From Candidatus Poribacteria bacterium (GTDB taxonomy: Bacteria > Poribacteria > WGA-4E > WGA-3G): a stretch of DNA of 64,000 nucleotides. Position 1 is the first letter of the stretch; every line of letters begins with the position of its first letter. Both the position numbers and the translations under genes were made by a program. The stretch lies in contig RKRR01000107.1 in assembly GCA_007571305.1 (NCBI GenBank), positions 5,638 through 69,637 on the forward strand, in the 5' to 3' direction. Of the stretch, positions 5,986 through 55,424 are shown one piece after another. Under the pieces are notes generated by a model. It was not told the DNA's origin. It did not search any database and was given only the letters and a program-made list of their open reading frames with translations.

Positions 5986-7254
5986 TTAATTCTCGGTCCG
6001 GAGTGCGTCAATAGGTGAAAGACGCGCCGCCCGCATCGCAGGGTAGACACCAAATCCCACACCCATGACAATCGAAAAAATAACAGAAGTCAATATCCAT
6101 GGAAGAGAAAGGACGACGGGCCACGCGTCCACAACAGGCACAATCCGCACCGCAAGCCATGCCATCCCATGTGCTGCGCCCCAACCGCCCGCGATGCCGA
6201 GCACCCCGCCGCATAAGCAGAGGCAGATCGCTTCTGTCAAGAACTGATAGAAGACATCAATCCGTTTCGCACCTACTGATTTCCGTAAGCCTATCTCGCG
6301 TGTTTTCTCACCGACAGAAACGAGACAGATATTCATAATGCCGATGCCGCTGACGAACAGCGAGAAACCCGCAATGCTGCCCAAAGTAATCTTTATCACC
6401 CTTTGGATGTGCTCCAGCCGCCCGAATGTCAGTTTCGGGATATAGTACTCAATAAAGTCGTCCTGCCCGCGGTGTCTTTTACGTAGGATATCCTTAACAG
6501 AAGCGATGATACTGTTAATATTGGCACCCTTTTGGAAAAAGACAATCATGTAATCAACGTAGCGAATGCCTGAAAGTCGTTGTTGATCTGTTGTCAATGG
6601 AACACAGACGGCATCATCCAAGGAATACTCCCAAGTGAGGCTACGACCCTTTGGTTTCATCACACCCACGACACGCATTCGTACTGGCTTTTGTCGCCAA
6701 TAACGATAATATCGGACCTTTATTTCCTCCCCGAGTGGGACTGCCTCTCCAAACAACTCAATGGCAACTTCTGCCCCCAAGACGCAGACCTGTGCTGCGG
6801 TCTCTATATCGTTTTCGGTGAGAAATCTACCGGTTTGTAGTTCCCAATTCATGCCGCGGGCATAGTTCGCAGTAACTGCTTCTATGAGTGCTCTAGCTTG
6901 GGTTCCATGTCGAGTGGTAACAAAGTTTTCAAAAGATTCGTGATTGGGTAAGACATATAAAACCTCGGGGCATTCCGCCTCAATAGCATAAGCGTCTTCA
7001 AGAGTATATCGTTCGGTAGTTCGCCGGAGCCGCCCGCGTTTGAGAATAGATGTGCGAGTGTAGAGTGTAAACTGATTTGCCCCACCAAGTTTTTCGATAT
7101 CTTCAGCGATGATTTTTTTTCCACCGTCGCCAATAGCAATCATGCACAGCACCCCCGCAACCCCGATAAAGATGCCGAGAATGGACAATCCCGCACGGAG
7201 TCTATTTTGCACAAGCGGCTTTACACCTGTCGTGATAGCCTCAAGAATATTCAT
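5986..7254 (-). CDS. MacB/FtsX-family ABC transporter permease
   Basis: NRLRAGLSILGIFIGVAGV, large periplasmic domain, SLFVSGIGIMNICLVSV, REIGLRKSVGA, GVYPAMRAARLSPIDALRTE. Confidence 0.9.
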   Translation of the reverse strand: MNILEAITTGVKPLVQNRLRAGLSILGIFIGVAGVLCMIAIGDGGKKIIAEDIEKLGGANQFTLYTRTSILKRGRLRRTTERYTLEDAYAIEAECPEVLYVLPNHESFENFVTTRHGTQARALIEAVTANYARGMNWELQTGRFLTENDIETAAQVCVLGAEVAIELFGEAVPLGEEIKVRYYRYWRQKPVRMRVVGVMKPKGRSLTWEYSLDDAVCVPLTTDQQRLSGIRYVDYMIVFFQKGANINSIIASVKDILRKRHRGQDDFIEYYIPKLTFGRLEHIQRVIKITLGSIAGFSLFVSGIGIMNICLVSVGEKTREIGLRKSVGAKRIDVFYQFLTEAICLCLCGGVLGIAGGWGAAHGMAWLAVRIVPVVDAWPVVLSLPWILTSVIFSIVMGVGFGVYPAMRAARLSPIDALRTEN

Positions 7255-8960
7255 CAGCTGACTTGTGGTCCTATAACCTTCAGAAACTCTTTATCATCCT
7301 TTACATCCGAAAATTCAGGGGTCTCAAGGAAAGTCGGGTAGTATGTATCCCAATTATCCGGTTGCGCCACATAGTAGTCCCGAGCGACCTTTAAATGATG
7401 TAGAGTCTTTTCTCGATCCTTCTCAGAAGCCCAGATGCTTGCAGCAAGTTGAAGGTGGGCATAATCGTTGTTATTTTCCAAATCAATGGCGACTTTCAGA
7501 AACCTTTTCGCCTCATCATACTTCCTCAACCACACCAGACAACAACCGACATCGTGAGCAAGCCACATAAGATGACCGAGATCTACAGGTTGCCCTGTCT
7601 CCCGTTTTTTTAATTCTCCTTCCATATACGCCCTCACTTCTGTAAAGATTTGATCGAAACGCTCCCAATCCTCCTGTCCACCATAGATGAGAAGTAGATT
7701 TTCTTTCGCAATTAACCAGAATTGAGAATAGTGATCCGAACCGGGTTCATTGTTAGCACGTTCCAACTTTTCTATTTCAAGGAGTGCTTCATCGAATCTG
7801 TCGTTGCATCGTAAGACATCTACTCCTGTTTGCAGGAACTCGCAGCGACTGTAGCAACTCACGTCAGGATTGTCTAAGCGTTCAGAGGCTTCATGATAAA
7901 GTTGAATCCAGTCATCAATACGACCTTCCGCCGCCCAACATCCATGCACATGCAAATTGGAAGCAGCCTCTAACACGTATTTATCTGACAAGTGCTGGCA
8001 CGTCCAACGGTAAAACTGAGAGTGTTCCTCAATCGCTTCTCGATGTCTTCCCAGAAAAGCGAGGCTATAAATCAATCCATCGTGCGCCCAGAAACGCTCG
8101 GTATTATCTGAAGTCTCATCCATATACTTACGGAGTAGAGGGATTCGCTTTTCCATTCCGAATTTGTCCATATACAGGTATATCTCATCCACAGCGAGAT
8201 GCATTAATTCGGGTGTGGTTTTACCCTTAAGTGCATCTTCAATCTCATTGCAGGCTTTTGTAAGAATATCCGATCTTGATGCGGGATCAGATTTCACATC
8301 TTCCATGAATGCATTGAACTTCGTGCGAATTTCTTCTAATTGTGTCATGATGTTCTCCTTCACGTTATCTGGTAATTCTAAGGAACCAAAGAATTCTGGA
8401 TTTAAGAGTTCTTGATCTGCTTGCAGACGCTTTCGAGCTCGCTGAAGTCGACTCGTAATTGTATTCACCGACACTCCCATGACTCTGGCGATCTCTCTCG
8501 TTGACATTTCGTCGAGATAGAAGAGTGTTACAACGGAGCGTTCATTCGCCGGTAGTTTTTCCAAAAGTCTTCTCACAAGTTCATGGTAATGCTCGATTCT
8601 CTCTGTCATCCGCTGTTCCGATATATGGTGGACATAAGAGGATTTCTCAATTTCTTTAGTAGGTGTGTCCTCCAAGGATTGCGTCACAGACCTTTGGCTT
8701 CGCATCCAATCAATACATAGCCGATTTGCGATGACATGGAGCCATCCAGCAAATTGATTGGGATTCTTGAGTGTCGGAAGTTTATTGTATGCCCTCAGGA
8801 AGGTGTCTTGCATGATCTCTTCCGCATGGTGAAAATCTTGGATCTTCCGCCATGCCAGGGCATGAATGCTTTTCTGGTACTTTTCGACTAAGATACCAAA
8901 CGCAGTGTCGTCACCCGATAAAAACTTGCCAATCAATCGAGCATCGTCTTCTCTTTCCAC
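7254..8960 (-). CDS. ECF sigma factor fused to a ~364-aa C-terminal helical-repeat (TPR-like) domain
   Basis: Sigma2 (AEEIMQDTFLRAY...FAGWLHVIANRLCIDW) and sigma4 (EIARVMGVSVNTITSRLQRARKRL) in residues 1-185; C-terminal helical repeats (YDEAKRFLKVAIDLENNNDYAHLQLA); GTG start with AGGAGG RBS; stop overlaps the permease ATG (TGATG). Confidence 0.85.
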   Translation of the reverse strand: MEREDDARLIGKFLSGDDTAFGILVEKYQKSIHALAWRKIQDFHHAEEIMQDTFLRAYNKLPTLKNPNQFAGWLHVIANRLCIDWMRSQRSVTQSLEDTPTKEIEKSSYVHHISEQRMTERIEHYHELVRRLLEKLPANERSVVTLFYLDEMSTREIARVMGVSVNTITSRLQRARKRLQADQELLNPEFFGSLELPDNVKENIMTQLEEIRTKFNAFMEDVKSDPASRSDILTKACNEIEDALKGKTTPELMHLAVDEIYLYMDKFGMEKRIPLLRKYMDETSDNTERFWAHDGLIYSLAFLGRHREAIEEHSQFYRWTCQHLSDKYVLEAASNLHVHGCWAAEGRIDDWIQLYHEASERLDNPDVSCYSRCEFLQTGVDVLRCNDRFDEALLEIEKLERANNEPGSDHYSQFWLIAKENLLLIYGGQEDWERFDQIFTEVRAYMEGELKKRETGQPVDLGHLMWLAHDVGCCLVWLRKYDEAKRFLKVAIDLENNNDYAHLQLAASIWASEKDREKTLHHLKVARDYYVAQPDNWDTYYPTFLETPEFSDVKDDKEFLKVIGPQVS

Positions 8961-9342: not shown

Positions 9343-11316
9343 CTAAAAGGCGCGGATGACCTTAGCAACTAAACGCTGTTTGAATTCCGAGGCATTAGGA
9401 TCTCCCAGGATAATGAAAAAGTCAGTGCCGGCATATCCGGATCGGCGCAATGCGAAGTAGATATTAATGCCCTCTGCTTGCCAGATTAATCGGCTACCGA
9501 GACTTAATGCGGGACTGAAATCGTACGTGAGGGTTAAAATCTGTTGGTACCGCCTCTCAAAGTGCCACTGAATTTGGGAAGTCAATCCGACAGTGAAACC
9601 GTGGGTGCGGAGATTCAGATTCCCGCTGACGCGATGAATCCGCTCCCCTGCTTGCTCGCCACCTGTGTATCCAACATTGACATTATTAAACCGGTCTGAG
9701 GCGCGGAGACCCAAATTAACAGAGAAAAGGCTATCGGTGAATTCCTCAAATCTGCCACCTCTCCAGTCAGCCCCAAGTGCGATGTCACTATGGGTTAAAA
9801 GGTATGTGGCGATTGTAAACGTGCGACGAAAAAGTTCGCCTTCAGCGGTGTTAGAAGCATGCCCATAAAAGAAAATATTGGCACGCCGAAAAATTCCATC
9901 CCGCCATTCGTTATCAATTCGGACACGCATGGAAGCACCATGATATCCGGTGAAGGGGTGGTAGCCGAGTCTGTTCACAAAATCGGGATCGAAGAACAAT
10001 CCCGACACCGCTGCTTGAAGTAGCGAACCTTCGTAAAGGAACGTGGCAGCCCCTGCCCTACCCTCCGATTCACCCTCCCAAGTTTGACCGAAATGTGAGG
10101 ACACCGAAAACTTACCGTGGCGTATATTCCCTGAAAGATAACCGACATTGTTGGCTTTGGTATCACGGTGATGATGAGACAAAAACGCCGCGCTGATATT
10201 GGATGTCGCCGTGAGCGATTGTGAAGCTCGGAAGATAACATTCTGGTTGTTTCCATGATACGTGCTTAAGGTACCGACTGAGGTATTCTTGCCAATTTTT
10301 CCAAAGGCTTTCAATCCTGCATCCATATCCTCTACCCGCCGCGAGTGAAAAAAGTTCCGAAATTGATAGAGATTACCACCTTCTGAAAAGAACGGACGGC
10401 GATCCGGTACGTAGCGTTCACCGTAGGAGAAATCGATGCCTTCCACGGCTTGTTCAACATTATCAAAATCGGGATTCGCTGTTCCAATGAGTCGCAACTG
10501 TGGTGTAACTTCATAGCGGATATCCGCGCCTGCGCGGGCAGTGTATTCTCTCTCGTCGGCCTCCGCTTCCCGAATACCACCAATCAGATAGGGTAAAAAT
10601 TTGAGTTCACGTTTCCGAGGCGGTGGTAGCACATCAATCCAATGTCCATCGTTCTCTCGAAATTCATTCACCCCTAAATTACACCACCACGAACGTTCCC
10701 CAGTGCGCTGCTGTTCTCTGTCAATATTAATCCCCATCCGAACTGGTTTGGTTGTATCAGGATAATCCAACATCTGCCACGGTATCTCCATCTCTACAAT
10801 CCAGCCGTCTTCCACAATCTGTGCTGCAGCCTTCCATAGTCCGATCCACTCACTTTTTTCTGCACGTCCAGTAGCGAGATGTGCGTATTTCGTCCCGATT
10901 GGATTTACGATAAAGAAATTTCTGTCCGAAAACTGGTGTGTATGAAACGGATCAAGACTAAACGAAACCCAGTCCTCTCCGCGAATTCGGGTCTGATCTT
11001 TCGTTTGGCGCGCAACAATTTTATCGGGCATATCATCGTAAAGATGAAGTCCAACGTAAATAGCTTTGTCCGTATAAACAAGGCGGCCCATAGACTGATT
11101 TTTTGCTGGTTTTTCGGTGCGCTGATCAGTGAAACCGCTGGCTTGGGGTGCGTCTTGCCAGCAAACATCGTTGAGGACACCGTCAATGACAGGCGTTTGA
11201 TCTGTTTTGACGGCGCGGAGTTCTTTCTGCACAGTCTGTCCGTTTTCGGCTACCGACATTTGTAAGTCTGTGATTAAGGTGAACAATAGTGTGATAAGCA
11301 ATACTACCCTAGACAT
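9343..11316 (-). CDS. CBM9-like plus DUF5916 outer-membrane/secreted protein
   Basis: Signal peptide; PVIDGVLNDVCWQDAP, YVGLHLYD, GWIVEMEIPW, TANPDFDNVE, DRRPFFSEG motifs; beta-strand-rich C-terminus ending in F. Confidence 0.7.
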   Translation of the reverse strand: MSRVVLLITLLFTLITDLQMSVAENGQTVQKELRAVKTDQTPVIDGVLNDVCWQDAPQASGFTDQRTEKPAKNQSMGRLVYTDKAIYVGLHLYDDMPDKIVARQTKDQTRIRGEDWVSFSLDPFHTHQFSDRNFFIVNPIGTKYAHLATGRAEKSEWIGLWKAAAQIVEDGWIVEMEIPWQMLDYPDTTKPVRMGINIDREQQRTGERSWWCNLGVNEFRENDGHWIDVLPPPRKRELKFLPYLIGGIREAEADEREYTARAGADIRYEVTPQLRLIGTANPDFDNVEQAVEGIDFSYGERYVPDRRPFFSEGGNLYQFRNFFHSRRVEDMDAGLKAFGKIGKNTSVGTLSTYHGNNQNVIFRASQSLTATSNISAAFLSHHHRDTKANNVGYLSGNIRHGKFSVSSHFGQTWEGESEGRAGAATFLYEGSLLQAAVSGLFFDPDFVNRLGYHPFTGYHGASMRVRIDNEWRDGIFRRANIFFYGHASNTAEGELFRRTFTIATYLLTHSDIALGADWRGGRFEEFTDSLFSVNLGLRASDRFNNVNVGYTGGEQAGERIHRVSGNLNLRTHGFTVGLTSQIQWHFERRYQQILTLTYDFSPALSLGSRLIWQAEGINIYFALRRSGYAGTDFFIILGDPNASEFKQRLVAKVIRAF

Positions 11317-11376
11317 GATTCTCCCTCATTGTCCCGCGAGCTTCTACAGGTTCGCTCTTATAGATTCACTTGTATA

Positions 11377-11535
11377 ACCCAAATTGCTATGGACACAATT
11401 TTAGAAATTCATCTGCTCTTTTTTATTGAAAAACGTTCGGGATCCGCAGTATTTCGTAGCGTAGGAAACCTTTGGTCGCCTACGTCCGAAGCTGCACAAC
11501 CGAACAGGTGATGCGACAAAGGCGGCAACTTGGGT
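11377..11535. mobile_element. MITE family C (IS982-like ends), copy 1
   Basis: Ends ACCCAAATTG / CAACTTGGGT, flanked by TTGTATA / TTGTATG; full-length homology with 53926-54082. Confidence 0.75.
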
Positions 11536-11624: not shown

Positions 11625-12845
11625 TCAAGGGATCTTTTGATGGAATTCCGCGATGCTTTTTTCAACACTTCGGAGTAGCATCTCATCGCTGAGGTGGAAC
11701 GCCTCGCGTATTGTGATCGGTAGTTTCTGTTTCGCCTCTATCGAATCGAGCAACTGCTGATTTTGCACGACAACGACAGAGTCAATACTTCCTCGAAGTT
11801 CCTGCAGACCACGTTTTGCTTGCTCCGCGCGACGTTGACCTTCAAAGTTGAATGGACACGTCACAACGCCGACTGCGAAAGCACCCTGTTCTTGAGCGAG
11901 AGATGCAATCAGAGGTGCGGCACCAGTCCCTGTTCCACCACCCATACCAGCGATAACAAAGACAATATCCGCATTCGCAACGATAGTGTAGAGTGTTTCT
12001 CTGTCCTCCTCAGCGGCTTCTCTACCTACCTCTGGATTCGCGCCCGAAAACCCTGGAGTGGTGTTTGAGCCGATCTGTACCCGTGTTGCTTCACGGTGCT
12101 TGTCTAGTGCTTGCATGTTTATATCCACGGCATAAAATTCAACACCTGTCAAACCGGCTGCAATCATGTGATTGACGGCGTTACCGCCCGCTCCACCGAC
12201 ACCAATAACCTTGATTTTGGTTTGGATGTTTTTGGATTCTTCTCGTTTGGATGACATAGGTCTCCCTTTTTTAGGCTCGACACCGAACTTCTTACGCAGG
12301 AGTTCACGTGTCTGTCTTAATTTCGTCTTGATTGTGCCTATCGCCAATCCGAGTTCAGCGTGGATCTCATTGATATTCCACAATTCCAAATAGTATAGGA
12401 CCGCAACGCGGCGCATTTTATCTGGGAGATGATGTATTGCTTCTCTCACCTCTTCGTAGAGTTCTGTTTCACGAAAGCGTGCGACAGCACCTTGATCAAT
12501 ATAATCCGTCAGATCTGCATAACTGGCAGAAATTTCATTCCCCAAACGCCCAACAGAAGCATAGTACCTCTTGCAAGCGTTATAAGCAATGCGATGTAGC
12601 CATCCACCGAAACTCTCAACGCTCTGTAGTCCGCCGATATTTTCCCAGACGGCTCTCCAAACGTCCATAAGGATTTCTTCAGCATCGCGGGGTTGTCTCG
12701 AATTTGCGATAATCACTTTCCAAATACGTGGACTATAACGCGACATCAGTTCCGCAAACGCCAGTTCATCACCGGCTTGTACAAGTTCGATGAGTTCTTC
12801 ATCTGTTAGAATGGTGTCCGTTGATAGATCGTATCGCATAAACAT
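11625..12845 (-). CDS. ECF sigma factor fused to an FtsZ N-terminal GTP-binding domain
   Basis: Residues 1-190: sigma2 (DAEEILMDVWRAVW...FGGWLHRIAYN) and sigma4 (EIHAELGLAIGTIKTKLRQTRELL). Residues 197-406: KIKVIGVGGAGGNAV, GANPEVG, AGMGGGTGTGAAP, PFNFEGQRR. Ends before the T7 loop (NVDFAD). Confidence 0.92.
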   Translation of the reverse strand: MFMRYDLSTDTILTDEELIELVQAGDELAFAELMSRYSPRIWKVIIANSRQPRDAEEILMDVWRAVWENIGGLQSVESFGGWLHRIAYNACKRYYASVGRLGNEISASYADLTDYIDQGAVARFRETELYEEVREAIHHLPDKMRRVAVLYYLELWNINEIHAELGLAIGTIKTKLRQTRELLRKKFGVEPKKGRPMSSKREESKNIQTKIKVIGVGGAGGNAVNHMIAAGLTGVEFYAVDINMQALDKHREATRVQIGSNTTPGFSGANPEVGREAAEEDRETLYTIVANADIVFVIAGMGGGTGTGAAPLIASLAQEQGAFAVGVVTCPFNFEGQRRAEQAKRGLQELRGSIDSVVVVQNQQLLDSIEAKQKLPITIREAFHLSDEMLLRSVEKSIAEFHQKIP

Positions 12846-12928
12846 TTCTCAATTAGATTTTAACCTTAAAGAGTAGACTTTTTCGGAGAGCGGTTTAAAA
12901 AAATCAAATTAACGACTTGTGCTAATTA

Positions 12929-13086
12929 ACCCAAGTTGCCACTTTGTAGCATAGGAAACCGTTGATCTCCTGTGCATCTTCATGCCGAAAATCACACGGA
13001 ATACGTCAAACTTTTGGAAAAAATGGAGGATCCTCACTGAAAACGGGTGTTCGTGTATCTGAAATCCTATAGGTAGCAACTTGGGT
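12929..13086. mobile_element. MITE family C, copy 2
   Basis: Perfect ends ACCCAAGTTG / CAACTTGGGT with 6-bp direct repeat TAATTA on both sides; lies between the two sigma-fusion genes. Confidence 0.8.
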
Positions 13087-13216
13087 TAATTAGTTTTGAG
13101 ACAGGATTTCAACTCGGTCTGAGACGTGTTAACCTCCTCGGAATACTTCCGAAACCCTCCTGGAGATGAATCAAGCGTTTTTGATGTATCAGGGTCAGGA
13201 ACATCGTTTCGCTTTG

Positions 13217-14938
13217 CTAAAGTTTCTTCGGCATGACGAAATAGACCTGCCCTTCTTCACCCATCGGTTTAATAAAAATAGGGTCCAATTCACCCGAGAA
13301 CTCCAGAGACAGAGCCTCCGTTTCAACGCGCTCGATTGCGTCTGTCAGCAACCGTGGATCAAAACCGATACGGATACTTCCAGTGCTGGATTCCACCTCT
13401 AACGTCTCCTGCTTTATATCCGGTTCAGTCGTCTCCGGAGAAATCCGAATTTGTTGCGCATCTATCTCCATACAAATAGTAGGATTTTCCGGATTTGTGA
13501 GCGGCGAGACCCTGCGTATTGCGTCCAAAAAACGCTCTCTCGGCACAACCGTCCGCCCTTTAAAAGATTCTGGAAAGAGTTTCTCATACTTTGGATATTC
13601 ACCGTCTACCAATCGCGTCGTTAATGTAGCGTGATCATCGGCAAAAAGGATTTCATCCTCAACGAGCGAAATCTTTACTTCTGGAGAACTGGCAAAATTT
13701 CGCTCAATTTCTCTGACAGCCTTGAGCGGGATGATGAATCCATTGCTCTCACCAGCTAGCCTGAAGGGTTCGCAATGCGCGATAGCAATTTGTTTGCCGT
13801 CGCATCCAACGACCTCAGTTCTGTCCTCAAAAAGTTTAAAATAAAGCCCGTTTAGAAATCGACGACGATTTTCCTCTCTGGACGCAGCAAATTCAGTCTT
13901 GTAGAGAACAGACCGCAGGGATTCTCCGTTAATAGTGAATGCCTCTTCGCCAACAGAGAGGAGTTCAGGGAACTCTTTATTGGGAAGTCCAATAATTTTG
14001 TAAACGTCTTCCTGACCTGTGATTTCAACCCTATCGCTCGTCGCCGCGAAGTCTATCGCTTTCTCAGCGGGCCACGTTTTAATGATATCCTCCAATTTTT
14101 GGAAAGAAACCACGATGGCTCCTTCCTCTTTGACTGTCCCTTCAACCTTCATTCTGATGCCGATTTCCGTGTCCGTCGCCATACACTCAATTGTGCTCCC
14201 TTCCGCATGGATGAGAACATTTGCGGTAATAGGTGAGGTATCCTGTCCACTTACGATACTCTGTAGCACTTGTAAGGAGTGCCAAAACTCATCTCTCTCT
14301 AAAGTTAATTTCATTCCAAAACCTCCGTTCAAATGATTTTGAGACCGATGTTCCCCTTCAATGGTGAGGTCTAACGCTTCTTGAATCATGAATTCATACT
14401 TCTTTAGTTGTTGCCGCGCACGGCGAAGACGACTTTTAATTGTATTTTCTGATACGCCTAAAAGACGACTTATCTCTGCGTACGTCATGCCTTCAAGGTA
14501 GTGAAACGTGATGACTGTTCGATTGCCTTCCTTCAACTTCGCAAGCAACTTTTCTACCAAGTCGCGTCGCGCGTCAGCAAAAGTTTTCGCGTATTCCTCC
14601 GCGATATATCGGGAATACGCCTCTGTTGCTACTTCGGTGCTGTCAGTGCCTTCCAACGGTTCGATGTGTCGATGGTTCTTTCGGAGCCAAGCGATACAGA
14701 GGCGATCCGTAATGACATAAAGCCATCTTGGAAACCGCGTCGGATCTTCCAAGGTTTCCAATTTCTGATACACCTGTAGGAAGGTTTCCTGCGTAATATC
14801 TTCGGCAATATGAAAATCCCGAATTTTCCGCCACGCGCGTGCGTGAACCTGTTTCTGGTATTTTCTCACCAAGTGCTCAAAGGCAATTGCGTCACCCGCA
14901 AGGATGCGTTGAATCAACACAATATCATCGTTTCTCAC
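13217..14938 (-). CDS. ECF sigma factor fused to a full-length DNA polymerase III beta clamp (DnaN paralog)
   Basis: Residues 1-190: sigma2 (IAEDITQETFLQVYQKL...WLYVITDRLC) and sigma4 (EISRLLGVSENTIKSRLRRARQQL). Residues 209-573 (365 aa): MKLTLER..., MATDTE, EFPEL, FAAS...RRFLNGLYF, DGKQIA, IIPLKAVRE, RLVDGEYPKYEKLFP, IGFDPRLL, FVMPKKL. Confidence 0.92.
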   Translation of the reverse strand: MRNDDIVLIQRILAGDAIAFEHLVRKYQKQVHARAWRKIRDFHIAEDITQETFLQVYQKLETLEDPTRFPRWLYVITDRLCIAWLRKNHRHIEPLEGTDSTEVATEAYSRYIAEEYAKTFADARRDLVEKLLAKLKEGNRTVITFHYLEGMTYAEISRLLGVSENTIKSRLRRARQQLKKYEFMIQEALDLTIEGEHRSQNHLNGGFGMKLTLERDEFWHSLQVLQSIVSGQDTSPITANVLIHAEGSTIECMATDTEIGIRMKVEGTVKEEGAIVVSFQKLEDIIKTWPAEKAIDFAATSDRVEITGQEDVYKIIGLPNKEFPELLSVGEEAFTINGESLRSVLYKTEFAASREENRRRFLNGLYFKLFEDRTEVVGCDGKQIAIAHCEPFRLAGESNGFIIPLKAVREIERNFASSPEVKISLVEDEILFADDHATLTTRLVDGEYPKYEKLFPESFKGRTVVPRERFLDAIRRVSPLTNPENPTICMEIDAQQIRISPETTEPDIKQETLEVESSTGSIRIGFDPRLLTDAIERVETEALSLEFSGELDPIFIKPMGEEGQVYFVMPKKL

Positions 14939-15348
14939 CGGACATCTCCCGAAAGGTCATTTTATCAAGGGAACTTATACAATTTCCATATCTCGTGAAA
15001 TAGGTGTGCCTATAAATCGCGAAGAGGCACCCTATCAATTGACTTCACCATAGTGACGCGAACTGAAAAAAAAAAGGGTGCATAATTCTGCATACTTGCT
15101 GTGTCGTGCCACTTTAGTTTCTTGTCTCAAAGGGGATTCATCGCTGAACAAGATGGATTTAGTGCCGACTGAAGTTTGGCTGAGGATGCCGTCCCAGTTC
15201 CATATCTGATGGGCTTCGCGAATGCCACACACGCATTCGCCGAGATGCCCTCCTCTATGAAACGAGAAGCCTACTATCGCTTGTGTGGGATAGCATGGAC
15301 TACCCAGCGACCCCACACAAGTACAGTGCGCGTTAGATAGATCATTCA

Positions 15349-16188
15349 TTAATCGGTTTCCTCGGATACAGGTTTGTCAGCCTCGTCTGCATTCAAGTAT
15401 CTGAGTGGACTTTCAATGCTGTATTCCCCTGATTCCTCAAGAAACTGCTGAATCAGATAGACATGCCCAGCACCGATAATTAATAGGATCCGGTCATTCG
15501 GAGATTCGGTGATACGCGTGAGGTTCACAAAAATCTGGAGATTCCAGGTATACCACAAATGCCCAACCCAATTGGCCCCTGGGTACTGATCGCCGAGTCC
15601 AACACGCGCAATTCGCAAGTACTGCTGATGATCAGCGAGTCTACCTTCAGGCTGATTGAGTCGTCTGTACATATCGGTTATCGGTTCGTATTTCTCAGGT
15701 TCAACCCAGATTGTGCCATCTGCATCCTGCGTAATTTTCCCTTCAGCCATAGGGGGTTGCCCCATGAGGTGCTCCTGATTATGTGCCTTTGCGAACTTGT
15801 CAGGGTCTACCAAATCCCAGTCAAAGTTCTCTGGAAAGAAACCATCGGGTTCCTGACGGTAATTTCGGAAATAATCAACACAGTAGAGTTTAGGGAGTCC
15901 CATCTGTTTTGCCAATCGAAATCCGATTTGGTCGCCTTCCCCACGTTTGAGTTGGTATGTGCCTTCCAGATAGCCATGATAGTTTGCGTTAATCTTAGCA
16001 TCAAACCTTTCATCTGCCTCAAGAGCTACCTTAGTGGGACGAAACGCTTTCAGCTGCGTCACCAGTTGTTCAATCTCGCGTTGGCGTTTGGGCGCGAGGA
16101 CATCATCCATTTTTGTATTGAATACATTGATTCCTGGATTTGCCAGATGGTCACTGCCGAGAATCATAAGTATCGGTTTTTGTGGCAT
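15349..16188 (-). CDS. DUF5694-like protein (stand-alone copy, putative TraB/Tiki-type hydrolase)
   Basis: MILGSDHLANPG, FRPTKVALE, QIGFRLAKQMG, WYTWNLQIFVNL, RILLIIGAGHV. ATG at 16188 follows AGGAG; the track start at 16278 overlaps the upstream gene. Confidence 0.7.
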   Translation of the reverse strand: MPQKPILMILGSDHLANPGINVFNTKMDDVLAPKRQREIEQLVTQLKAFRPTKVALEADERFDAKINANYHGYLEGTYQLKRGEGDQIGFRLAKQMGLPKLYCVDYFRNYRQEPDGFFPENFDWDLVDPDKFAKAHNQEHLMGQPPMAEGKITQDADGTIWVEPEKYEPITDMYRRLNQPEGRLADHQQYLRIARVGLGDQYPGANWVGHLWYTWNLQIFVNLTRITESPNDRILLIIGAGHVYLIQQFLEESGEYSIESPLRYLNADEADKPVSEETD

Positions 16189-16222
16189 TTGCGTAGTATC
16201 TCCTGTAGATAGATATGTCTGA

Positions 16223-17647
16223 TCATTGCTTAGGCTGTTCGGTATCCTCGGATGAAAGTGTCTCTGCCTCATCCGCATTCAAGTACTTCAGTGGACTCTC
16301 AACGATGTAGTCTCCCGATTCCTCAAGAAACTGCTGAATCAGATAGACATGCCCAGCGCCAATAATCAGTAGAATGCGATCATCGGTGGACTCAGTGATA
16401 CGCGTGAGGTTCACAAAATTCTTGAGATTATGTGCATACCACCAATGTGAAACCCAATTGGCACCTGGATATTGGTCTTTGAGCCCAATGCGTGCGGTTC
16501 GCAGATACGATTGATGTTGTACCCTACCCCATTCAGGCTGATTGAGCCGGATATACATGTCAATTAGGGGTTCATATTCCTCAGGTTCAACCCAGACTGT
16601 GCCATCTACGTCCGCCCGAACTCTCACTCCGCTTGAGGAGATGCTCCATAAGAGATGCTCCTGATTATGAGTCTCCGCAAACGTGGCGTAGTCCAGTAGA
16701 CTCTGATCAATTTGATCTAAAATCGGTCTCTGTTCCGGCCAATCAGCAACACAGTAAAGTTTCGGATGTCCCAGCTGTTTCGCTAACCGAAAGCCGATTT
16801 GGTTGTGCGAAATCCGTTTGAGTTCGTAATCGCCCTCCAAGTAGTCTTGATAATTGGCGTTAATCTCAGCATCAGATTTTTTGTCTGCATAGACGGCTAT
16901 CTTAGTGGGACGAAACGCTTTCAGCTGCGTCACCAGTTGTTCCATTTCGCGTTGGCGTTTGGGCGCGAGGACATCATCCATTTTTGTATTGAATACATTG
17001 ATTCCTGGATTTGTGAAGAGGTCACCACCCAAAATCATGACTGTCGCTTTTTGTCGTGTGTCATCTCTTTTCCACTGCCCCTTCAGCTTGTCGCCGAAAT
17101 CGATGTCCACCGCACCGAAATTGCTTAGATTTCCGAGCAATTCCTCAATGCGTTCTGGCTCGATCTCTCCGTAGATGTTGGCAAAGGTGGCTTCTCCAGA
17201 TCCTTTAGAGATGATGATAGCGAAAATCCCGTAGACCTTCTTTTCGTCAAACAGTAGATTGATCTCCACCGTTTCACTCTTTTCCTTAATCCTGACGAGG
17301 ACTTCCCACTGATCCTTTTTCAGTTTCTCCTTGAAATAACTAACTAATTTCCTTTCATCAATCCTTGCCTTATCGTAGGTGCGGACATAGATGCCATCTA
17401 ACATTTGGATCAGTTCGGCGACTTCGGGTTGATTGCTCACCGACTTGGTCACCAGATTGATGAGTTTCGCGGTCAGGTTAACTTCGACTTTTGCTTCAAT
17501 GGTCTCCGGAAAATCAAAGAGGATAAGCCCTTTTCTCTCTGTTTTATCCGAACTTTCTTGTTGTGCTGGTACTGTATTAATCAGTATAAACCATACAGGT
17601 AAAACAACTGATATCAATAATAGGATGGACTGTTTTTGCATTTTCAT
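16223..17647 (-). CDS. Secreted DUF4252-DUF5694 fusion protein
   Basis: Signal peptide; DUF4252-like block (KVEVNLTAKLI...LDGIYVRTY...WEVLVRIKE...FANIYGEI); C-terminal half is a near-duplicate of 15349-16188. Confidence 0.7.
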   Translation of the reverse strand: MKMQKQSILLLISVVLPVWFILINTVPAQQESSDKTERKGLILFDFPETIEAKVEVNLTAKLINLVTKSVSNQPEVAELIQMLDGIYVRTYDKARIDERKLVSYFKEKLKKDQWEVLVRIKEKSETVEINLLFDEKKVYGIFAIIISKGSGEATFANIYGEIEPERIEELLGNLSNFGAVDIDFGDKLKGQWKRDDTRQKATVMILGGDLFTNPGINVFNTKMDDVLAPKRQREMEQLVTQLKAFRPTKIAVYADKKSDAEINANYQDYLEGDYELKRISHNQIGFRLAKQLGHPKLYCVADWPEQRPILDQIDQSLLDYATFAETHNQEHLLWSISSSGVRVRADVDGTVWVEPEEYEPLIDMYIRLNQPEWGRVQHQSYLRTARIGLKDQYPGANWVSHWWYAHNLKNFVNLTRITESTDDRILLIIGAGHVYLIQQFLEESGDYIVESPLKYLNADEAETLSSEDTEQPKQ

Positions 17648-17659
17648 GTGTTCTACTCC

Positions 17660-18346
17660 TTAATTTGAATTGTCGTTTGTTTCTGTTTCTGACTTTGGGT
17701 CGTCCTCCAGTTCTCCCGAACTCACCGCTACTTTCAACCACTGGGGTGCATGCCCCTTTACCCAACCGCGAACATTTTCAAGAATCTCCACCTCAGAATT
17801 AGATTCCAGAAACTGTCCAAATAGAACACCGAGTTTCTGAAAGTCCATCTCTCCATAGATGTTCACGAAACTCGTTTCTTTGTCATTAGTGAACATGAGG
17901 AAAATGCCATGCACTATGCCCTGTTCCTCGGCATATAGCAGACTGAGGTCGAATTTGTCCTCGATTTTGACGAGACGTTCCCACTTTTTCGCTTCAAAGA
18001 TCTCTTGATAGTGGTCAATTACGTTCTTGAGATCTTCTGTTTCTTTATTATATGTGCGGATGGCAGCACCGTTCAGCATTTCGATATGCTCTGTCAAAAC
18101 GACCGACTTGTCTCCAGCAAGTTTCAGATGACTACCAGAAGTCATAAAGAGTTTGAAGAAGTCCCTATCCAAGTTAAATGCCATTTTAGGAAGCGGGGCA
18201 TCCGGCACATCCATCTCTATTTTGCCAAACATTACCTCTACTTCTGCTACGTTGTTCGTCTGGGCGAACCCATTACTGAAGGCGCAGCAGGCTGCGAAAA
18301 AAACGACACCCAGTAAAAGAAAAGTGAGGGGGAATCTTTCCATCAA
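17660..18346 (-). CDS. Secreted DUF4252-family protein
   Basis: Signal peptide; MAFNLDRDFFKL, LNGAAIRTY, WERLVKIE, FVNIYGEMD. Confidence 0.65.
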   Translation of the reverse strand: MMERFPLTFLLLGVVFFAACCAFSNGFAQTNNVAEVEVMFGKIEMDVPDAPLPKMAFNLDRDFFKLFMTSGSHLKLAGDKSVVLTEHIEMLNGAAIRTYNKETEDLKNVIDHYQEIFEAKKWERLVKIEDKFDLSLLYAEEQGIVHGIFLMFTNDKETSFVNIYGEMDFQKLGVLFGQFLESNSEVEILENVRGWVKGHAPQWLKVAVSSGELEDDPKSETETNDNSN

Positions 18347-19020
18347 TTTTCTCCTTTTTGGTGGGAGTGTTGACTCTTTTCAGTGTCAGGAACATTTTCG
18401 GGTAACCGGCTAAGGCTCTCCAAACTTCGCCGAATTGCTAATGAAATATTTTCTTTTTGTTTCAACACGCTGCGGGACGCGTTTTCAATCTGAACAAAGG
18501 GACGACCTGAAACTTCATCAATTCGTACATCAGGAAGCTTTTCATTGACAACGGCACCTGTTCTCTCTACCGCGTAGTTTAACTGACTGAGCGCATAGTT
18601 GAGGTCACGGGAGGCTTGCGTTATCCTCACATACTGCTGATACTGGTAGGTACCAAACAAAGCAACACCAATGAGAACTACCAAGGCACCTGCGCGAGTA
18701 AGTCGTGAAGTGATGTAATCCGAGAATGTGAACAACTGGAATATCCGTTGCAGCCATCTCGGTCCCCTGTTGGGATGCGTGCGAACATAAGCCGAAACAG
18801 CGTTGAAAATTTCTGGTGGTGGTTCCGGCATCGGAAGATCGTGTAATGCTTCATCTATTGCTTGTGCGAAGCGAACTTCATTTTGACAAGCCGAACAGAA
18901 CGCAATATGTGCCTTTACTGTCGCATGAATATCTGCATCCAATTCATCGGCGAGATACGCCTCTAAATTGTCCTGAATCTCCATACAAGATGAATCTCGG
19001 TGAAGCGGAAGATCCTTCAT
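18343..19020 (-). CDS. Zinc-binding (ZAS, zf-HC2) transmembrane anti-sigma factor
   Basis: C-x...LEAYLADEL...HIAFCSAC (HxxxCxxC), one TM helix (GALVVLIGVALFGTY); overlaps the sigma stop (ATGA). Confidence 0.85.
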   Translation of the reverse strand: MKDLPLHRDSSCMEIQDNLEAYLADELDADIHATVKAHIAFCSACQNEVRFAQAIDEALHDLPMPEPPPEIFNAVSAYVRTHPNRGPRWLQRIFQLFTFSDYITSRLTRAGALVVLIGVALFGTYQYQQYVRITQASRDLNYALSQLNYAVERTGAVVNEKLPDVRIDEVSGRPFVQIENASRSVLKQKENISLAIRRSLESLSRLPENVPDTEKSQHSHQKGEN

Positions 19021-19550
19021 CTGTTATTCCTCCAATAGGGACGTAGTAACTCCCGCAACCTTTTACGGGCACGGAATACAGTAGATTTTACGGTGCCTTC
19101 GGGTTGCTCTAAAACCTCAGCAATCTCCTTGAAACTCATGCTATTCATCTCCCGCATAACTATCACCGCTCGCATGTCCGGCGGCAATTTACGAATGGCA
19201 CACTGCACTGACTCCTTGAGTTCTTGCTGAAGTACAATCTCCTCTGGCGATGGCTGTGATTGATTGGAGTGTGTGTGCATTAAGGTTTCAAGCTCCGCAT
19301 CATCTCCTTCTGCCAAAGGCACCTGAAATTTGTTCCGCTTTAGCAGATTGAAACAGAGATTCTGCACACATTTTAGCAACCATGAACGGGCTGTCTTCGG
19401 ACGCAATTTGGTGCGGTGTTCCCATCCCTTAATAAATGTCTCCTGCGTTATATCCTCTGCATCTTCTCGATTTCCGAGTAGATAAAGAGCATGTTGGTAG
19501 ACTCGAGCCTTGTGTTCATGAACAAGCTCAAGAAATTCATCTTCAGTCAT
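19017..19550 (-). CDS. ECF RNA polymerase sigma factor (stand-alone)
   Basis: DAEDITQETFIKGW...WLLKCVQNLCFN and SFKEIAEVLEQPEGTVKSTVFRARKRL. Confidence 0.92.
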   Translation of the reverse strand: MTEDEFLELVHEHKARVYQHALYLLGNREDAEDITQETFIKGWEHRTKLRPKTARSWLLKCVQNLCFNLLKRNKFQVPLAEGDDAELETLMHTHSNQSQPSPEEIVLQQELKESVQCAIRKLPPDMRAVIVMREMNSMSFKEIAEVLEQPEGTVKSTVFRARKRLRELLRPYWRNNR

Positions 19551-53925: not shown

Positions 53926-54082
53926 ATATAAGTTGCTACGGACACAATTTTAGAGGTTCATCTGCTATTTTTCATTGGAAAACGTTCAGGATCCGCAATC
54001 TTTCGTAGCATAAGGGGACCGTCAGCCTGCGCCCGTAGATGCACAACCTTACAGGTTATGCTACAGAACTGGCAACTTGGGT
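53926..54082. mobile_element. MITE family C copy between ftsA and ftsZ
   Basis: Degenerate left end ATATAAGTTG, right end CAACTTGGGT, perfect 8-bp direct repeat TAATGATA (53918-53925, 54083-54090). Confidence 0.8.
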
Positions 54083-54137
54083 TAATGATAGGAGGAATTA
54101 GGTTGCTGTGTCTTTGTTACAGTAACTGAAATCTAAG

Positions 54138-55424
54138 ATGATAGAATTCGAACAGGAAGAATTTGAAAGTCTACGCGCAAGAATTAAAGTTATTGGGGTC
54201 GGTGGAGCAGGTGGAAACGCCGTGAAACGTATGATTGAGGCAGGACTTACCGGCATAGAATTTTATGCTGTCAATACTGACCAACAAGCACTCTTGACCT
54301 GCCTTGGTGCCACCCAAATCCAGATTGGTGTTAACACCACCGAAGGCTTAGGTTCCGGTGCAGATCCCGAGATTGGCAAAAAAGCCGCCGAAGAAAACAA
54401 AGAGGATCTTCAAATTATCGTAGAGAATGCAAATATGGTATTCATCACCGCTGGTATGGGAGGCGGTACTGGGACCGGTGCTGCACCGCTGATTGCTACA
54501 CAAGCAAAAGAACGTGGAGCACTTACTATCGGTGTCGTGACCCGTCCTTTCAACTTTGAGGGACAACGCCGTTCTAACACCGCCGAAGAAGGACTTGAGA
54601 AACTCCGGGCAGCCGCTGATTCCGTAATTGTTGTACCAAACCAACGTCTCATCGACACGATGGACAGAAAACTTCCTATCCGAGAAGCATTTCGTCTGGG
54701 AGACCAGATTCTCTTACATGGTGTTAAAAGCATATCCGACATCGTCACTGAATCAGGTGAAATTAACGTTGACTTTGCCGATGTTGAATCTATTATGCGC
54801 AACGCAGGAAGCGCATTGATGGGCATGGGGCACGCGACGGGGGACAACCGCGCTGAAATCGCCGCACAGCAGGCGACCAATTCACCCCTACTTGAACAAA
54901 CTAGTATTGCCGGTGCCGTCGGTATGATCGTGAACATTACCGCCCCTCCCGATTTCATGATGCACGAACTCGATGATGCTATGGGTGTCATTCAGGATAC
55001 CGCCCCTGATGCCCAAATTATTTTCGGGCTTGTCTACAAAGATGAATTGGAAGTTGAAGATGAAGTGCTTGTAACTGTCATTGCAACAGGGTTCGATGGT
55101 GGTGGAGGGAATGCCTACATAGATGACAGAAACACCTCGGCACGACAGAATGACACAGCTCCCTATCAAAGGCAACCACAAGGTTTGCCACCAAGTTCCA
55201 GCAGGGCGCGGCGGAGTATAGGCAGAACGCGATCCGATAGAGCGAGGGTTCCTGGTCAGGGACGAAGGGCAAATGCCGAACCCTCCGTAGAAGAGGATAA
55301 GGCACCCCAAAACAATCAGCAGAAACCTGTCCGAGGAAGAGATCAAGACTCAGGGCAACGTCAAACAGATTGGGAAATTCCCGCTTTTCTGCGCGTTCAA
55401 AAAAGACCAAGAAACGATAAATAG
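54138..55424 (+). CDS. ftsZ: Cell division protein FtsZ (canonical)
   Basis: GVGGAGGNAV, NTD, GLGSGADP, GGGTGTG, NVDFADV (T7 loop), VTVIATG, C-terminal core WEIPAFLR. Confidence 0.98.
   Translation: MIEFEQEEFESLRARIKVIGVGGAGGNAVKRMIEAGLTGIEFYAVNTDQQALLTCLGATQIQIGVNTTEGLGSGADPEIGKKAAEENKEDLQIIVENANMVFITAGMGGGTGTGAAPLIATQAKERGALTIGVVTRPFNFEGQRRSNTAEEGLEKLRAAADSVIVVPNQRLIDTMDRKLPIREAFRLGDQILLHGVKSISDIVTESGEINVDFADVESIMRNAGSALMGMGHATGDNRAEIAAQQATNSPLLEQTSIAGAVGMIVNITAPPDFMMHELDDAMGVIQDTAPDAQIIFGLVYKDELEVEDEVLVTVIATGFDGGGGNAYIDDRNTSARQNDTAPYQRQPQGLPPSSSRARRSIGRTRSDRARVPGQGRRANAEPSVEEDKAPQNNQQKPVRGRDQDSGQRQTDWEIPAFLRVQKRPRNDK

Follow-up and report, generated by a model that had tools for sequence, protein, structure and literature searches.

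A conserved fusion of an extracytoplasmic function sigma factor to a duplicated beta sliding clamp in Candidatus Poribacteria

The 64,000-nucleotide stretch of Candidatus Poribacteria DNA analysed here (contig RKRR01000107.1; hereafter the window, to which coordinates refer unless another locus is named) carries on its minus strand, at 13217..14938, an open reading frame (ORF) of 573 amino acids with a GTG start, in which an extracytoplasmic function (ECF) sigma factor is joined through a linker to a complete paralogue of the beta sliding clamp, DnaN. This gene is called sigma-DnaN' below. Sigma region 2 lies at 14669..14872 (residues 23-90; Pfam PF04542, 49.6 bits) and sigma region 4, the helix-turn-helix (HTH) that binds the -35 element, at 14399..14563 (residues 126-180; PF08281 at 67 bits, also PF04545). 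The linker (14315..14398, residues 181-208) is followed by clamp domain I (13961..14314, residues 209-326), by domain II, which forms half of the peptide-binding cleft (13589..13933, residues 336-450), and by domain III (13226..13582, residues 453-571). Two other sigma fusions lie on the same strand of the window, one carrying the GTPase domain of FtsZ (sigma-FtsZ', 11625..12845) and one a helical tail (7254..8960).

Pfam places Sigma70_r2 at residues 23-90 and Sigma70_r4_2 at residues 126-178 of sigma-DnaN', followed by DNA_pol3_beta (209-326), DNA_pol3_beta_2 (336-450) and DNA_pol3_beta_3 (453-571), each above its gathering cut-off. Sigma regions 1.1 and 3 are unmatched in Pfam, the layout being the ECF-type one of sigma2 and sigma4 only. 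In NCBIfam, TIGR02937 (sigma70-ECF) reaches 99.5 bits (cut-off 42.9), and TIGR00663 (dnaN) reaches 229 bits (cut-off 137.65) and covers profile positions 1-365 of 367. The extension that follows region 4 is 393 residues long, and its clamp part, of 365 residues as given in the initial annotation of this DNA, aligns end to end with solved beta clamps. An AlphaFold2 model built from a 102-sequence alignment gives this part a predicted local distance difference test (pLDDT) score of about 85-95 and predicts disorder over residues 173-205 (pLDDT <50), and Foldseek comparison of the model with the PDB matches solved beta clamps (target TM-score about 0.9). Pfam, NCBIfam and Foldseek agree on the covalent, in-frame combination of an ECF sigma and a three-domain DnaN that had been proposed, although the linker, put at about 20 residues, is actually of about 27. 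Sigma-DnaN' is a genuine ECF sigma-beta clamp fusion.

A search of 5.8 billion proteins, clustered at 90% identity, returned more than 120 clusters that match sigma-DnaN' at 67-86% identity over 99-100% of the query, with lengths of about 570-590 residues and an identical Pfam architecture throughout. Many of them lie on contigs of 5-6.7 Mb, closed chromosomes included. Because the frame is kept in all of these clusters, an assembly or frameshift artefact is ruled out. Clustering at 50% identity (1.84 billion representatives) leaves one full-length sigma-DnaN' cluster (P0086) together with truncated forms, and no match of more than 400 residues to the clamp range comes from elsewhere, other than two proteins (P0137 and P0138) described below. 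A scan of species-representative genomes gave 74 loci, all in metagenome-assembled genomes of Candidatus Poribacteria, a group of sponge symbionts; the clamp-fusion loci come from about 35 assemblies. The sigma-DnaN' fusion is conserved and confined to the Poribacteria lineage. A phage or mobile origin was considered and rejected: no phage record matches the protein over 80% or more of its length, and the window is chromosomal, with a division and cell wall (dcw) cluster and genes for ribonucleotide reductase, tyrosyl-tRNA synthetase and ATP synthase.

The fused clamp had been suspected to be a second copy, in part because dnaA, recF and gyrB are missing from its surroundings. They are indeed missing from the window, and the stand-alone dnaN genes of Poribacteria do not adjoin dnaA either. 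No second dnaN was found within the 64 kb. The suspicion is supported by the chromosome of a relative (OX638352.1, 5,746,478 bp), on which the fusion (L033) and a stand-alone dnaN encoding 367 amino acids (P0482, L081) lie about 290 kb apart, which also disposes of the idea that the fused clamp is the sole dnaN of its genome. In neighbour-joining trees, calculated without bootstrap, the fused clamps, truncated forms included, make up one clade, sister to the stand-alone Poribacteria clamps. Since they form a single clade, one ancient duplication and fusion inside the Poribacteria is suggested. Stand-alone dnaN genes also occur in Poribacteria as tandem arrays of 2-3 (373 + 368 + 368 amino acids) located 3' of a DUF6785 gene (L076, 6001-8867; L083, 7001-10495), an unusual multiplication of the beta clamp. 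One such array lies near a TnpB fragment and the type I restriction gene HsdR, the other near a TIR-domain gene.

Sigma-DnaN' is broken by a frameshift or an insertion in 5 of about 40 loci, and it is therefore an accessory gene, dispensable in some species. The insertion in L035 (11077-12195) holds a 372-residue transposase ORF of the insertion sequence type, a similar insertion of about 1.5 kb is present in L025, and frameshifts break the genes of L034, L036 and L037. A conserved subfamily of 457-461 residues (L027, L028, L030, L032 and L038; ~10001-11380) consists of the sigma head and clamp domains I-II only, and no domain III is encoded downstream of these genes. Two other arrangements were met. 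P0138 (L078, 8001-10121), from a closed 5.66-Mb metagenomic chromosome with 150x coverage, is a 706-residue protein made of an entire DnaN fused to an entire FtsZ (Tubulin + FtsZ_C). P0137 (L079, only 3x coverage) joins a sigma head of the FtsZ type to clamp domains II-III.

The junction between sigma and clamp carries a translation signal of its own. A Shine-Dalgarno (SD) sequence, GGAGG, at 14322-14326 (minus strand) precedes an in-frame ATG at 14312-14314, the native start of the clamp module and a possible second translation start. In every soluble fusion examined, the C-terminal part, or cargo, begins at its native in-frame ATG, with GGAGG/GGAGA or AAAGGAG 7-9 nucleotides upstream. The junction of sigma-FtsZ' has the matching design in 12 loci, and that of the third sigma fusion (7254-8960) also has an SD and an ATG, at residue 205. 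An SD stands before only 3.2% of the internal ATGs of the window, as against three out of three sigma-fusion junctions. The sigma-DnaN' junction is AT-rich and ranks at the 87th percentile of least-structured 50-nucleotide windows (32 genes). The glycine codon within the SD is GGA in 28 of 30 sequences, but other conserved glycine codons are similarly fixed. The leader of stand-alone Poribacteria dnaN genes reads GGAG-nnn-TTGGA-ATG, and the fused junction GGAGG-tt-TTGGA-ATG. Because the two match, the last linker residues, N-G-G-F-G, represent the translated ribosome-binding site and 5' leader of an ancestral stand-alone dnaN. Likewise, since the SD and native ATG of the cargo persist at the junction, the fusions arose by the joining of a sigma gene with its downstream gene. 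The downstream gene in ECF operons is the usual position of the anti-sigma factor. A free clamp protomer may also be translated from the internal start.

The ratio of nonsynonymous to synonymous substitution rates (dN/dS; Nei-Gojobori method, among sigma-DnaN' orthologues) is 0.1-0.2 in the sigma head, 0.1-0.4 and rarely higher in clamp domains I and II, with 0.13-0.3 listed for domain II, and 0.3-0.6 in domain III, the least constrained domain of the protein. As the ratio is below 1 in each, these values indicate that all modules are maintained by purifying selection.

Which surfaces of the clamp have been kept was examined by comparing 61 fused with 41 stand-alone Poribacteria clamps; E. coli residue numbers were mapped by alignment at about 24% identity and are approximate. 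Conservation of the peptide cleft between domains II and III is no lower in the fused than in the stand-alone clamps, with subsite 1 and most of subsite 2 kept in 58-61 of 61 fused sequences: L155, R152, P242 and the position of S346 (here a proline) are the same in 61/61 fused clamps, P363 in 59/61, and M362 and L366 in 58/61. The initial annotation had taken the pocket to be altered. Some changes are indeed fusion-specific, namely T172C (40/61), R365 to L, K or S (not R in 58/61) and M364K (15/61, including the window gene, in which a C-terminal MPKKL replaces MPMRL), but K-Q at 175/176 falls within the variation of the stand-alone clamps (R/K/N; W/R/Q), and most cleft residues are invariant. 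Since half of the substitutions then cited are normal for the lineage and the cleft is highly conserved, the argument from the pocket holds only in part.

The changes are found on other surfaces. Stand-alone clamps keep the positions of E. coli DNA contacts R24 (40/41), K/R73 (41/41) and, in the 148-153 loop, Y153 (39/41), whereas the fused clamps have R24Q in 52/61, K73E/Q in 48/61, R80E in 31/61 and Y153R/Q (R in the window gene) in 58/61. R24Q and K73E/Q fall in domain I, where the nearby sequence LPIL also becomes SP(I/M)P, and in the window gene domain II carries T172C and Y153R. The net charge of the six inner helices is +2.3 in the fused against +4.2 in the stand-alone clamps, although the loss of positive surface is partial, the basic residues K74, R96, K198 and R205 being kept. 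At the dimer interface, the pair on domain III (I272/L273 in E. coli) is L-L in 38-41 of the 41 stand-alone clamps and variable in the fused ones (A/P/L/S followed by F/V/L/R, with S-R or A-R in one subfamily), while the domain-I side is retained (I78, Y at 106, I at 108). A leucine to tryptophan change in domain I (W289) and G300D are also specific to the fusion. The clamp copy thus appears to have kept its fold and its protein-binding cleft, with the DNA and ring functions relaxed or altered.

The sigma head of sigma-DnaN' is not reserved for clamps. At 50-70% identity, it recurs in more than 100 clusters (50% identity) of proteins 370-1279 residues long. In a simple hydrophobic-window scan of 115 head-bearing representatives, 92 have one predicted transmembrane helix at about residues 217-226, followed by large domains. 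Most members thus connect the head, by a short linker, to a membrane helix and an extracytoplasmic, sensor-like domain. Only a minority of the family has a whole cytoplasmic protein as its tail (DnaN', a coiled-coil with a winged HTH, or a WD40 propeller). Besides the clamp, the cargos comprise a transmembrane helix with WD40, a transmembrane helix with BNR/Sortilin-like repeats, a soluble WD40 domain, and a 200-residue coiled-coil with an HTH_20-like domain. The clamp is thus one exchangeable cargo in a large, mostly membrane-tethered sigma-cargo family. In the tree of sigma heads, the clamp-bearing ones are scattered among the HTH and transmembrane types, although the clamps themselves are monophyletic. 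In addition, the synonymous divergence between L012 and L015 is mosaic, 1.4 in the sigma and 0.02-0.1 in clamp domains I-II. Both observations show an exchange of heads and tails through recombination. The membrane-tethered and WD40 paralogues presumably resemble the group ECF01-Gob.

An ECF promoter-like box, CAGAATTATGCACC-N-TTCGCGTCACTAT (TGCAC-N19-CGTC), is found at 15047..15090 (minus strand), about 110-150 nucleotides upstream of the start of sigma-DnaN', and could be an autoregulated promoter. ECF promoters are group-specific and in most cases autoregulated, with a conserved -35 element and a -10 element of the CGT type. The box at 15047..15090 is its only high-scoring site in the window; a weaker match to TGCAC...CGTC, before the sigma-helical gene, was considered as a further regulon site and set aside, being not above chance. 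The box, in its form TGCAC-N18/19-CGTC, lies 300 nucleotides or less upstream of a sigma-head gene in 41 of the 74 loci, against about 0.7 expected. Of 50 further strong sites, about 44 precede additional tandem sigma-head paralogues, and 4 precede an ABC exporter gene located directly upstream of sigma-DnaN'. Sigma-head paralogues occur in tandem arrays of 2-4 genes (L020-L024, L031, L040-L070), each arrayed gene being preceded by its own TGCAC-N17-19-CGTC box, which suggests a cross-regulated network. A distinct promoter-like box, unique in the window and conserved in 16 loci, lies at 12867..12896 (minus strand) upstream of sigma-FtsZ'.

Sigma-FtsZ' (11625..12845, minus strand; likely start at the second ATG, 12839) begins with an ECF sigma distinct from that of sigma-DnaN' (28% identity) and carries the FtsZ GTPase domain only (Pfam Tubulin at residues 210-369; TIGR00065 positions 7-200 of 353). 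More than 120 clusters contain it, with 73-86% identity and a uniform length of about 405 residues. The fused module is 60% identical to residues 5-202 of the canonical FtsZ and ends just before the T7 loop. It is a second copy, since a full-length ftsZ lies at 54138..55424 (plus strand) in the same genome, at the end of a complete dcw cluster (35322-55424, plus strand: rsmH, ftsI, murE, murF, ddl, mraY, murD, ftsW, murG, murC, ftsA, ftsZ). As this cluster is complete, the genome possesses the canonical divisome built on FtsZ. About 18 orthologous loci have sigma-DnaN' and sigma-FtsZ' together on one strand, separated by 1-9 kb; ABC2 or MacB/FtsX genes usually occupy the interval or adjoin the pair, and DUF5916 and DUF5694 genes are close by.

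In the window, sigma-DnaN' is flanked by a DUF5694 gene and sigma-FtsZ', and no separate anti-sigma gene adjoins it. The only zf-HC2 anti-sigma gene noted (18343-19020, minus strand) pairs with a stand-alone ECF sigma (19017-19550) in a classical ECF operon directly upstream (15349-19550, minus strand), which comprises the ECF sigma, zf-HC2, DUF4252 (17660-18346), DUF4252+DUF5694 (16223-17647) and DUF5694 (15349-16278) genes, the last two overlapping by 56 nucleotides as mechanically called. The third sigma fusion (7254..8960, minus strand), of 568 residues, has a head 48% identical to that of sigma-DnaN' and a 385-residue helical tail for which Pfam gives no match; it is followed by a MacB/FtsX permease gene (5986-7254). 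No convincing intrinsic terminator was found between sigma-DnaN' and sigma-FtsZ'. Their spacer contains a 21-nucleotide inverted repeat with arms 130 nucleotides apart (12922-13093), and a further copy of the arm lies about 50 nucleotides upstream of the canonical ftsZ (54072-54088). A role as a shared operator was discarded because inverted pairs of the motif, GTAGCAACTTGGGTTA, are dispersed over many Poribacteria loci, in the manner of a family of miniature inverted-repeat transposable elements.

Bacteria use ECF sigma factors as one of their major routes of signal transduction. To our knowledge, the regulatory domains fused to them are small sensor folds. Several groups have C-terminal extensions that modulate the sigma, such as the SnoaL-like domains of ECF41, ECF56, ECF294 and ECF295, the TPR of ECF42, the Cys-rich extensions of ECF44 and ECF238 and the transmembrane helices of ECF263, and groups with fused C-terminal regulatory domains are typically without an anti-sigma factor (PMC7826278; PMC5766207). 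Like these groups, sigma-DnaN' consists of a sigma2-sigma4 core with an extra domain of more than 50 residues and has no adjoining anti-sigma gene. Unlike them, it has a complete beta clamp as its extension (and its neighbour an FtsZ GTPase domain), in the Poribacteria genes the SD and start codon of the cargo persist, and recombination takes place between heads and tails. The ECF surveys searched mention neither DnaN, nor FtsZ, nor Poribacteria.

The reading that we favour, with a probability of roughly one half, is that sigma-DnaN' is a lineage-specific ECF sigma whose regulatory extension is a duplicated and specialized clamp acting as the analogue of an anti-sigma factor or anchor. The intact sigma regions 2 and 4 and the conserved promoter-like box before the gene count for a functional sigma head. 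The clamp copy would occupy the usual place of an anti-sigma factor or membrane anchor and would fill that role, holding or positioning the sigma through a partner bound to it. Sigma activity would then depend on the ligand of the cleft, on clamp-clamp assembly, or on both, and the DNA-encircling function of the copy would probably be weakened. A free DnaN' protomer, made from the internal SD and ATG, may pair or compete with the tethered one. The output would probably be autoregulation, together with expression of the co-transcribed envelope and ABC-transporter genes.

Several points weigh against this proposal. No ligand for the cleft of the clamp copy was found; the linker sequence QEALDL was considered as a clamp-binding motif acting in cis and rejected, as it is common to cargo types other than clamps. 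The sigma part of the AlphaFold2 model is of low confidence, so that no contact between sigma and clamp can be read from it. The conservation of the SD could be phylogenetic inertia, and the box is assigned as a promoter from its position and conservation alone. Finally, a mere anchor would not obviously need three clamp domains, yet the three-domain form is the commonest, and a real ring is conceivable.

The most far-reaching alternative takes the two neighbouring fusions together: sigma-DnaN' and sigma-FtsZ' would form a paired checkpoint that reports the state of replication and division directly to RNA polymerase, by way of copies still able to assemble with their parent machines or to be loaded as these are. 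The clamp fusion would be a covalent cellular counterpart of the gp45-gp55 couple of bacteriophage T4 (see below) in which a free protomer closes the ring. We regard this as rather unlikely.

Somewhat less likely still is a co-assembly of the copies with the machines from which they come, sigma-DnaN' pairing with the housekeeping clamp and sigma-FtsZ', with its nucleotide face but no T7 loop, capping FtsZ filaments, so that each sigma is held inactive or localized depending on the state of the replisome or of the divisome. Both cargos do derive from self-assembling proteins of the genome itself (60% identity for FtsZ; sister clades for the clamps), their genes show synteny in about 18 loci, domain I retains its side of the clamp interface (I78, Y at 106, I at 108), and, going by the established structure of FtsZ, a module cut off just ahead of the T7 loop would be one-sided as a subunit. 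The domain-III side, however, has diverged and varies by subfamily, W289 and G300D are fusion-specific, and such divergence of an interface is more typical of paralogues insulating themselves from their parent.

Of about the same standing is the idea of a sigma that tracks along DNA, in which a ring loaded at primer-template junctions or nicks by the clamp loader of the host would slide, carry or activate the tethered sigma and RNA polymerase, and couple the regulon to replication or repair. In T4 late transcription, gp45, a trimeric clamp of the PCNA type loaded on DNA, binds the sigma-like gp55 and the co-activator gp33. As in that system, a sliding clamp is physically connected to the promoter-recognition subunit of RNA polymerase. 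The T4 link, however, is non-covalent and made through C-terminal clamp-binding tails, whereas in sigma-DnaN' it is covalent and N-terminal to the clamp, which is of the beta type with key DNA-contact residues replaced. A second precedent is dCas12f-sigmaE, in which an ECF sigma is recruited by a separate RNA-guided, DNA-binding partner (PMC12259091). There, as in sigma-DnaN', an ECF sigma depends for its positioning on a partner module able to engage DNA in its own manner, but DNA binding has been demonstrated for dCas12f and is doubtful for the clamp copy. The complete three-domain fold under purifying selection, the conservation of the cleft used by the delta subunit of the clamp loader, the retained inner-surface basic residues K74, R96, K198 and R205, and a free protomer from the internal start that could complete the ring all fit with tracking. 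Against these stand the replacement of R24, K/R73 and Y153 in the fused family, with R80E in 31/61, the drop in inner-helix net charge from +4.2 to +2.3, and the degeneration of the L-L interface pair, to S-R or A-R in one subfamily. In addition, the conserved two-domain subfamily of 457-461 residues cannot form a dimer ring of the beta type, and the other cargos of the sigma head are unrelated to DNA tracking. Tracking is possible, although less supported than a regulatory or anchoring role of the clamp copy.

It is also conceivable, at longer odds, that the fusion results from tolerated read-through in a sigma-dnaN' operon, with the sigma and a free clamp as the functional products and the covalent link idle. 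The SD, its spacing and the native ATG are conserved, the junction is AT-rich with little structure, and the linker is disordered, the sigma perhaps being released by its cleavage. Yet more than 120 clusters and several types of cargo keep the frame open, a stop codon was not found to have returned at the junction in any member, and in the majority of the family, where the sigma is tethered by a transmembrane helix, the link is necessarily covalent. The least probable proposal, and one hard to credit, is that DnaN' and FtsZ' are integrated decoys that mimic the targets of phage inhibitors, so that binding of an inhibitor frees or activates the sigma and turns on a protective regulon: phage proteins target DnaN as well as FtsZ, the copies resemble many defence genes in being accessory, present in several copies, prone to recombination and lost at times, and the dnaN arrays near a type I restriction gene and a TIR-domain gene would fit, but a PADLOC scan of the fusions and their neighbours gave no significant match, only marginal HTH-type ones (on which ground a defence system was rejected), the neighbours are ABC/MacB transporters and DUF proteins rather than defence genes, the promoter copies found would drive only sigma paralogues and the ABC exporter, and the DNA-contact and interface surfaces, which a decoy would be expected to keep as in the parent, have drifted.

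We therefore return to the clamp copy as a built-in regulatory or anchoring domain. Proteins of this kind, ECF sigmas with a regulatory extension, are already known; what is unprecedented is the cargo, in a fusion that has been conserved and has a sigma-FtsZ counterpart as its neighbour. Extra copies of dnaN are known in bacteria as free-standing clamps, and here too a duplicated dnaN coexists with the housekeeping gene, but we know of no clamp paralogue fused to a sigma factor. In the literature searches made, no prior account of an ECF sigma-sliding clamp fusion or of Poribacteria ECF factors was found. As fused modules kept throughout a candidate phylum, a whole replication clamp and an FtsZ GTPase domain would give sigma factors a new class of input. 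It is also rare for duplicates of core proteins of replication and division to be recruited, as here, into the control of transcription. The pair formed by the sigma-clamp and sigma-FtsZ fusions suggests an undescribed wiring of gene expression to copies of the core machinery. Were the modules to engage their parent machines or DNA, transcription would be coupled directly and physically to replication and division in a cellular organism. The family also illustrates a route to one-polypeptide regulators, in which a sigma gene and its downstream gene fuse, the ribosome-binding site survives as a linker, and the parts are shuffled; with its many heads and tails, the Poribacteria family is a natural library of sigma-cargo designs.

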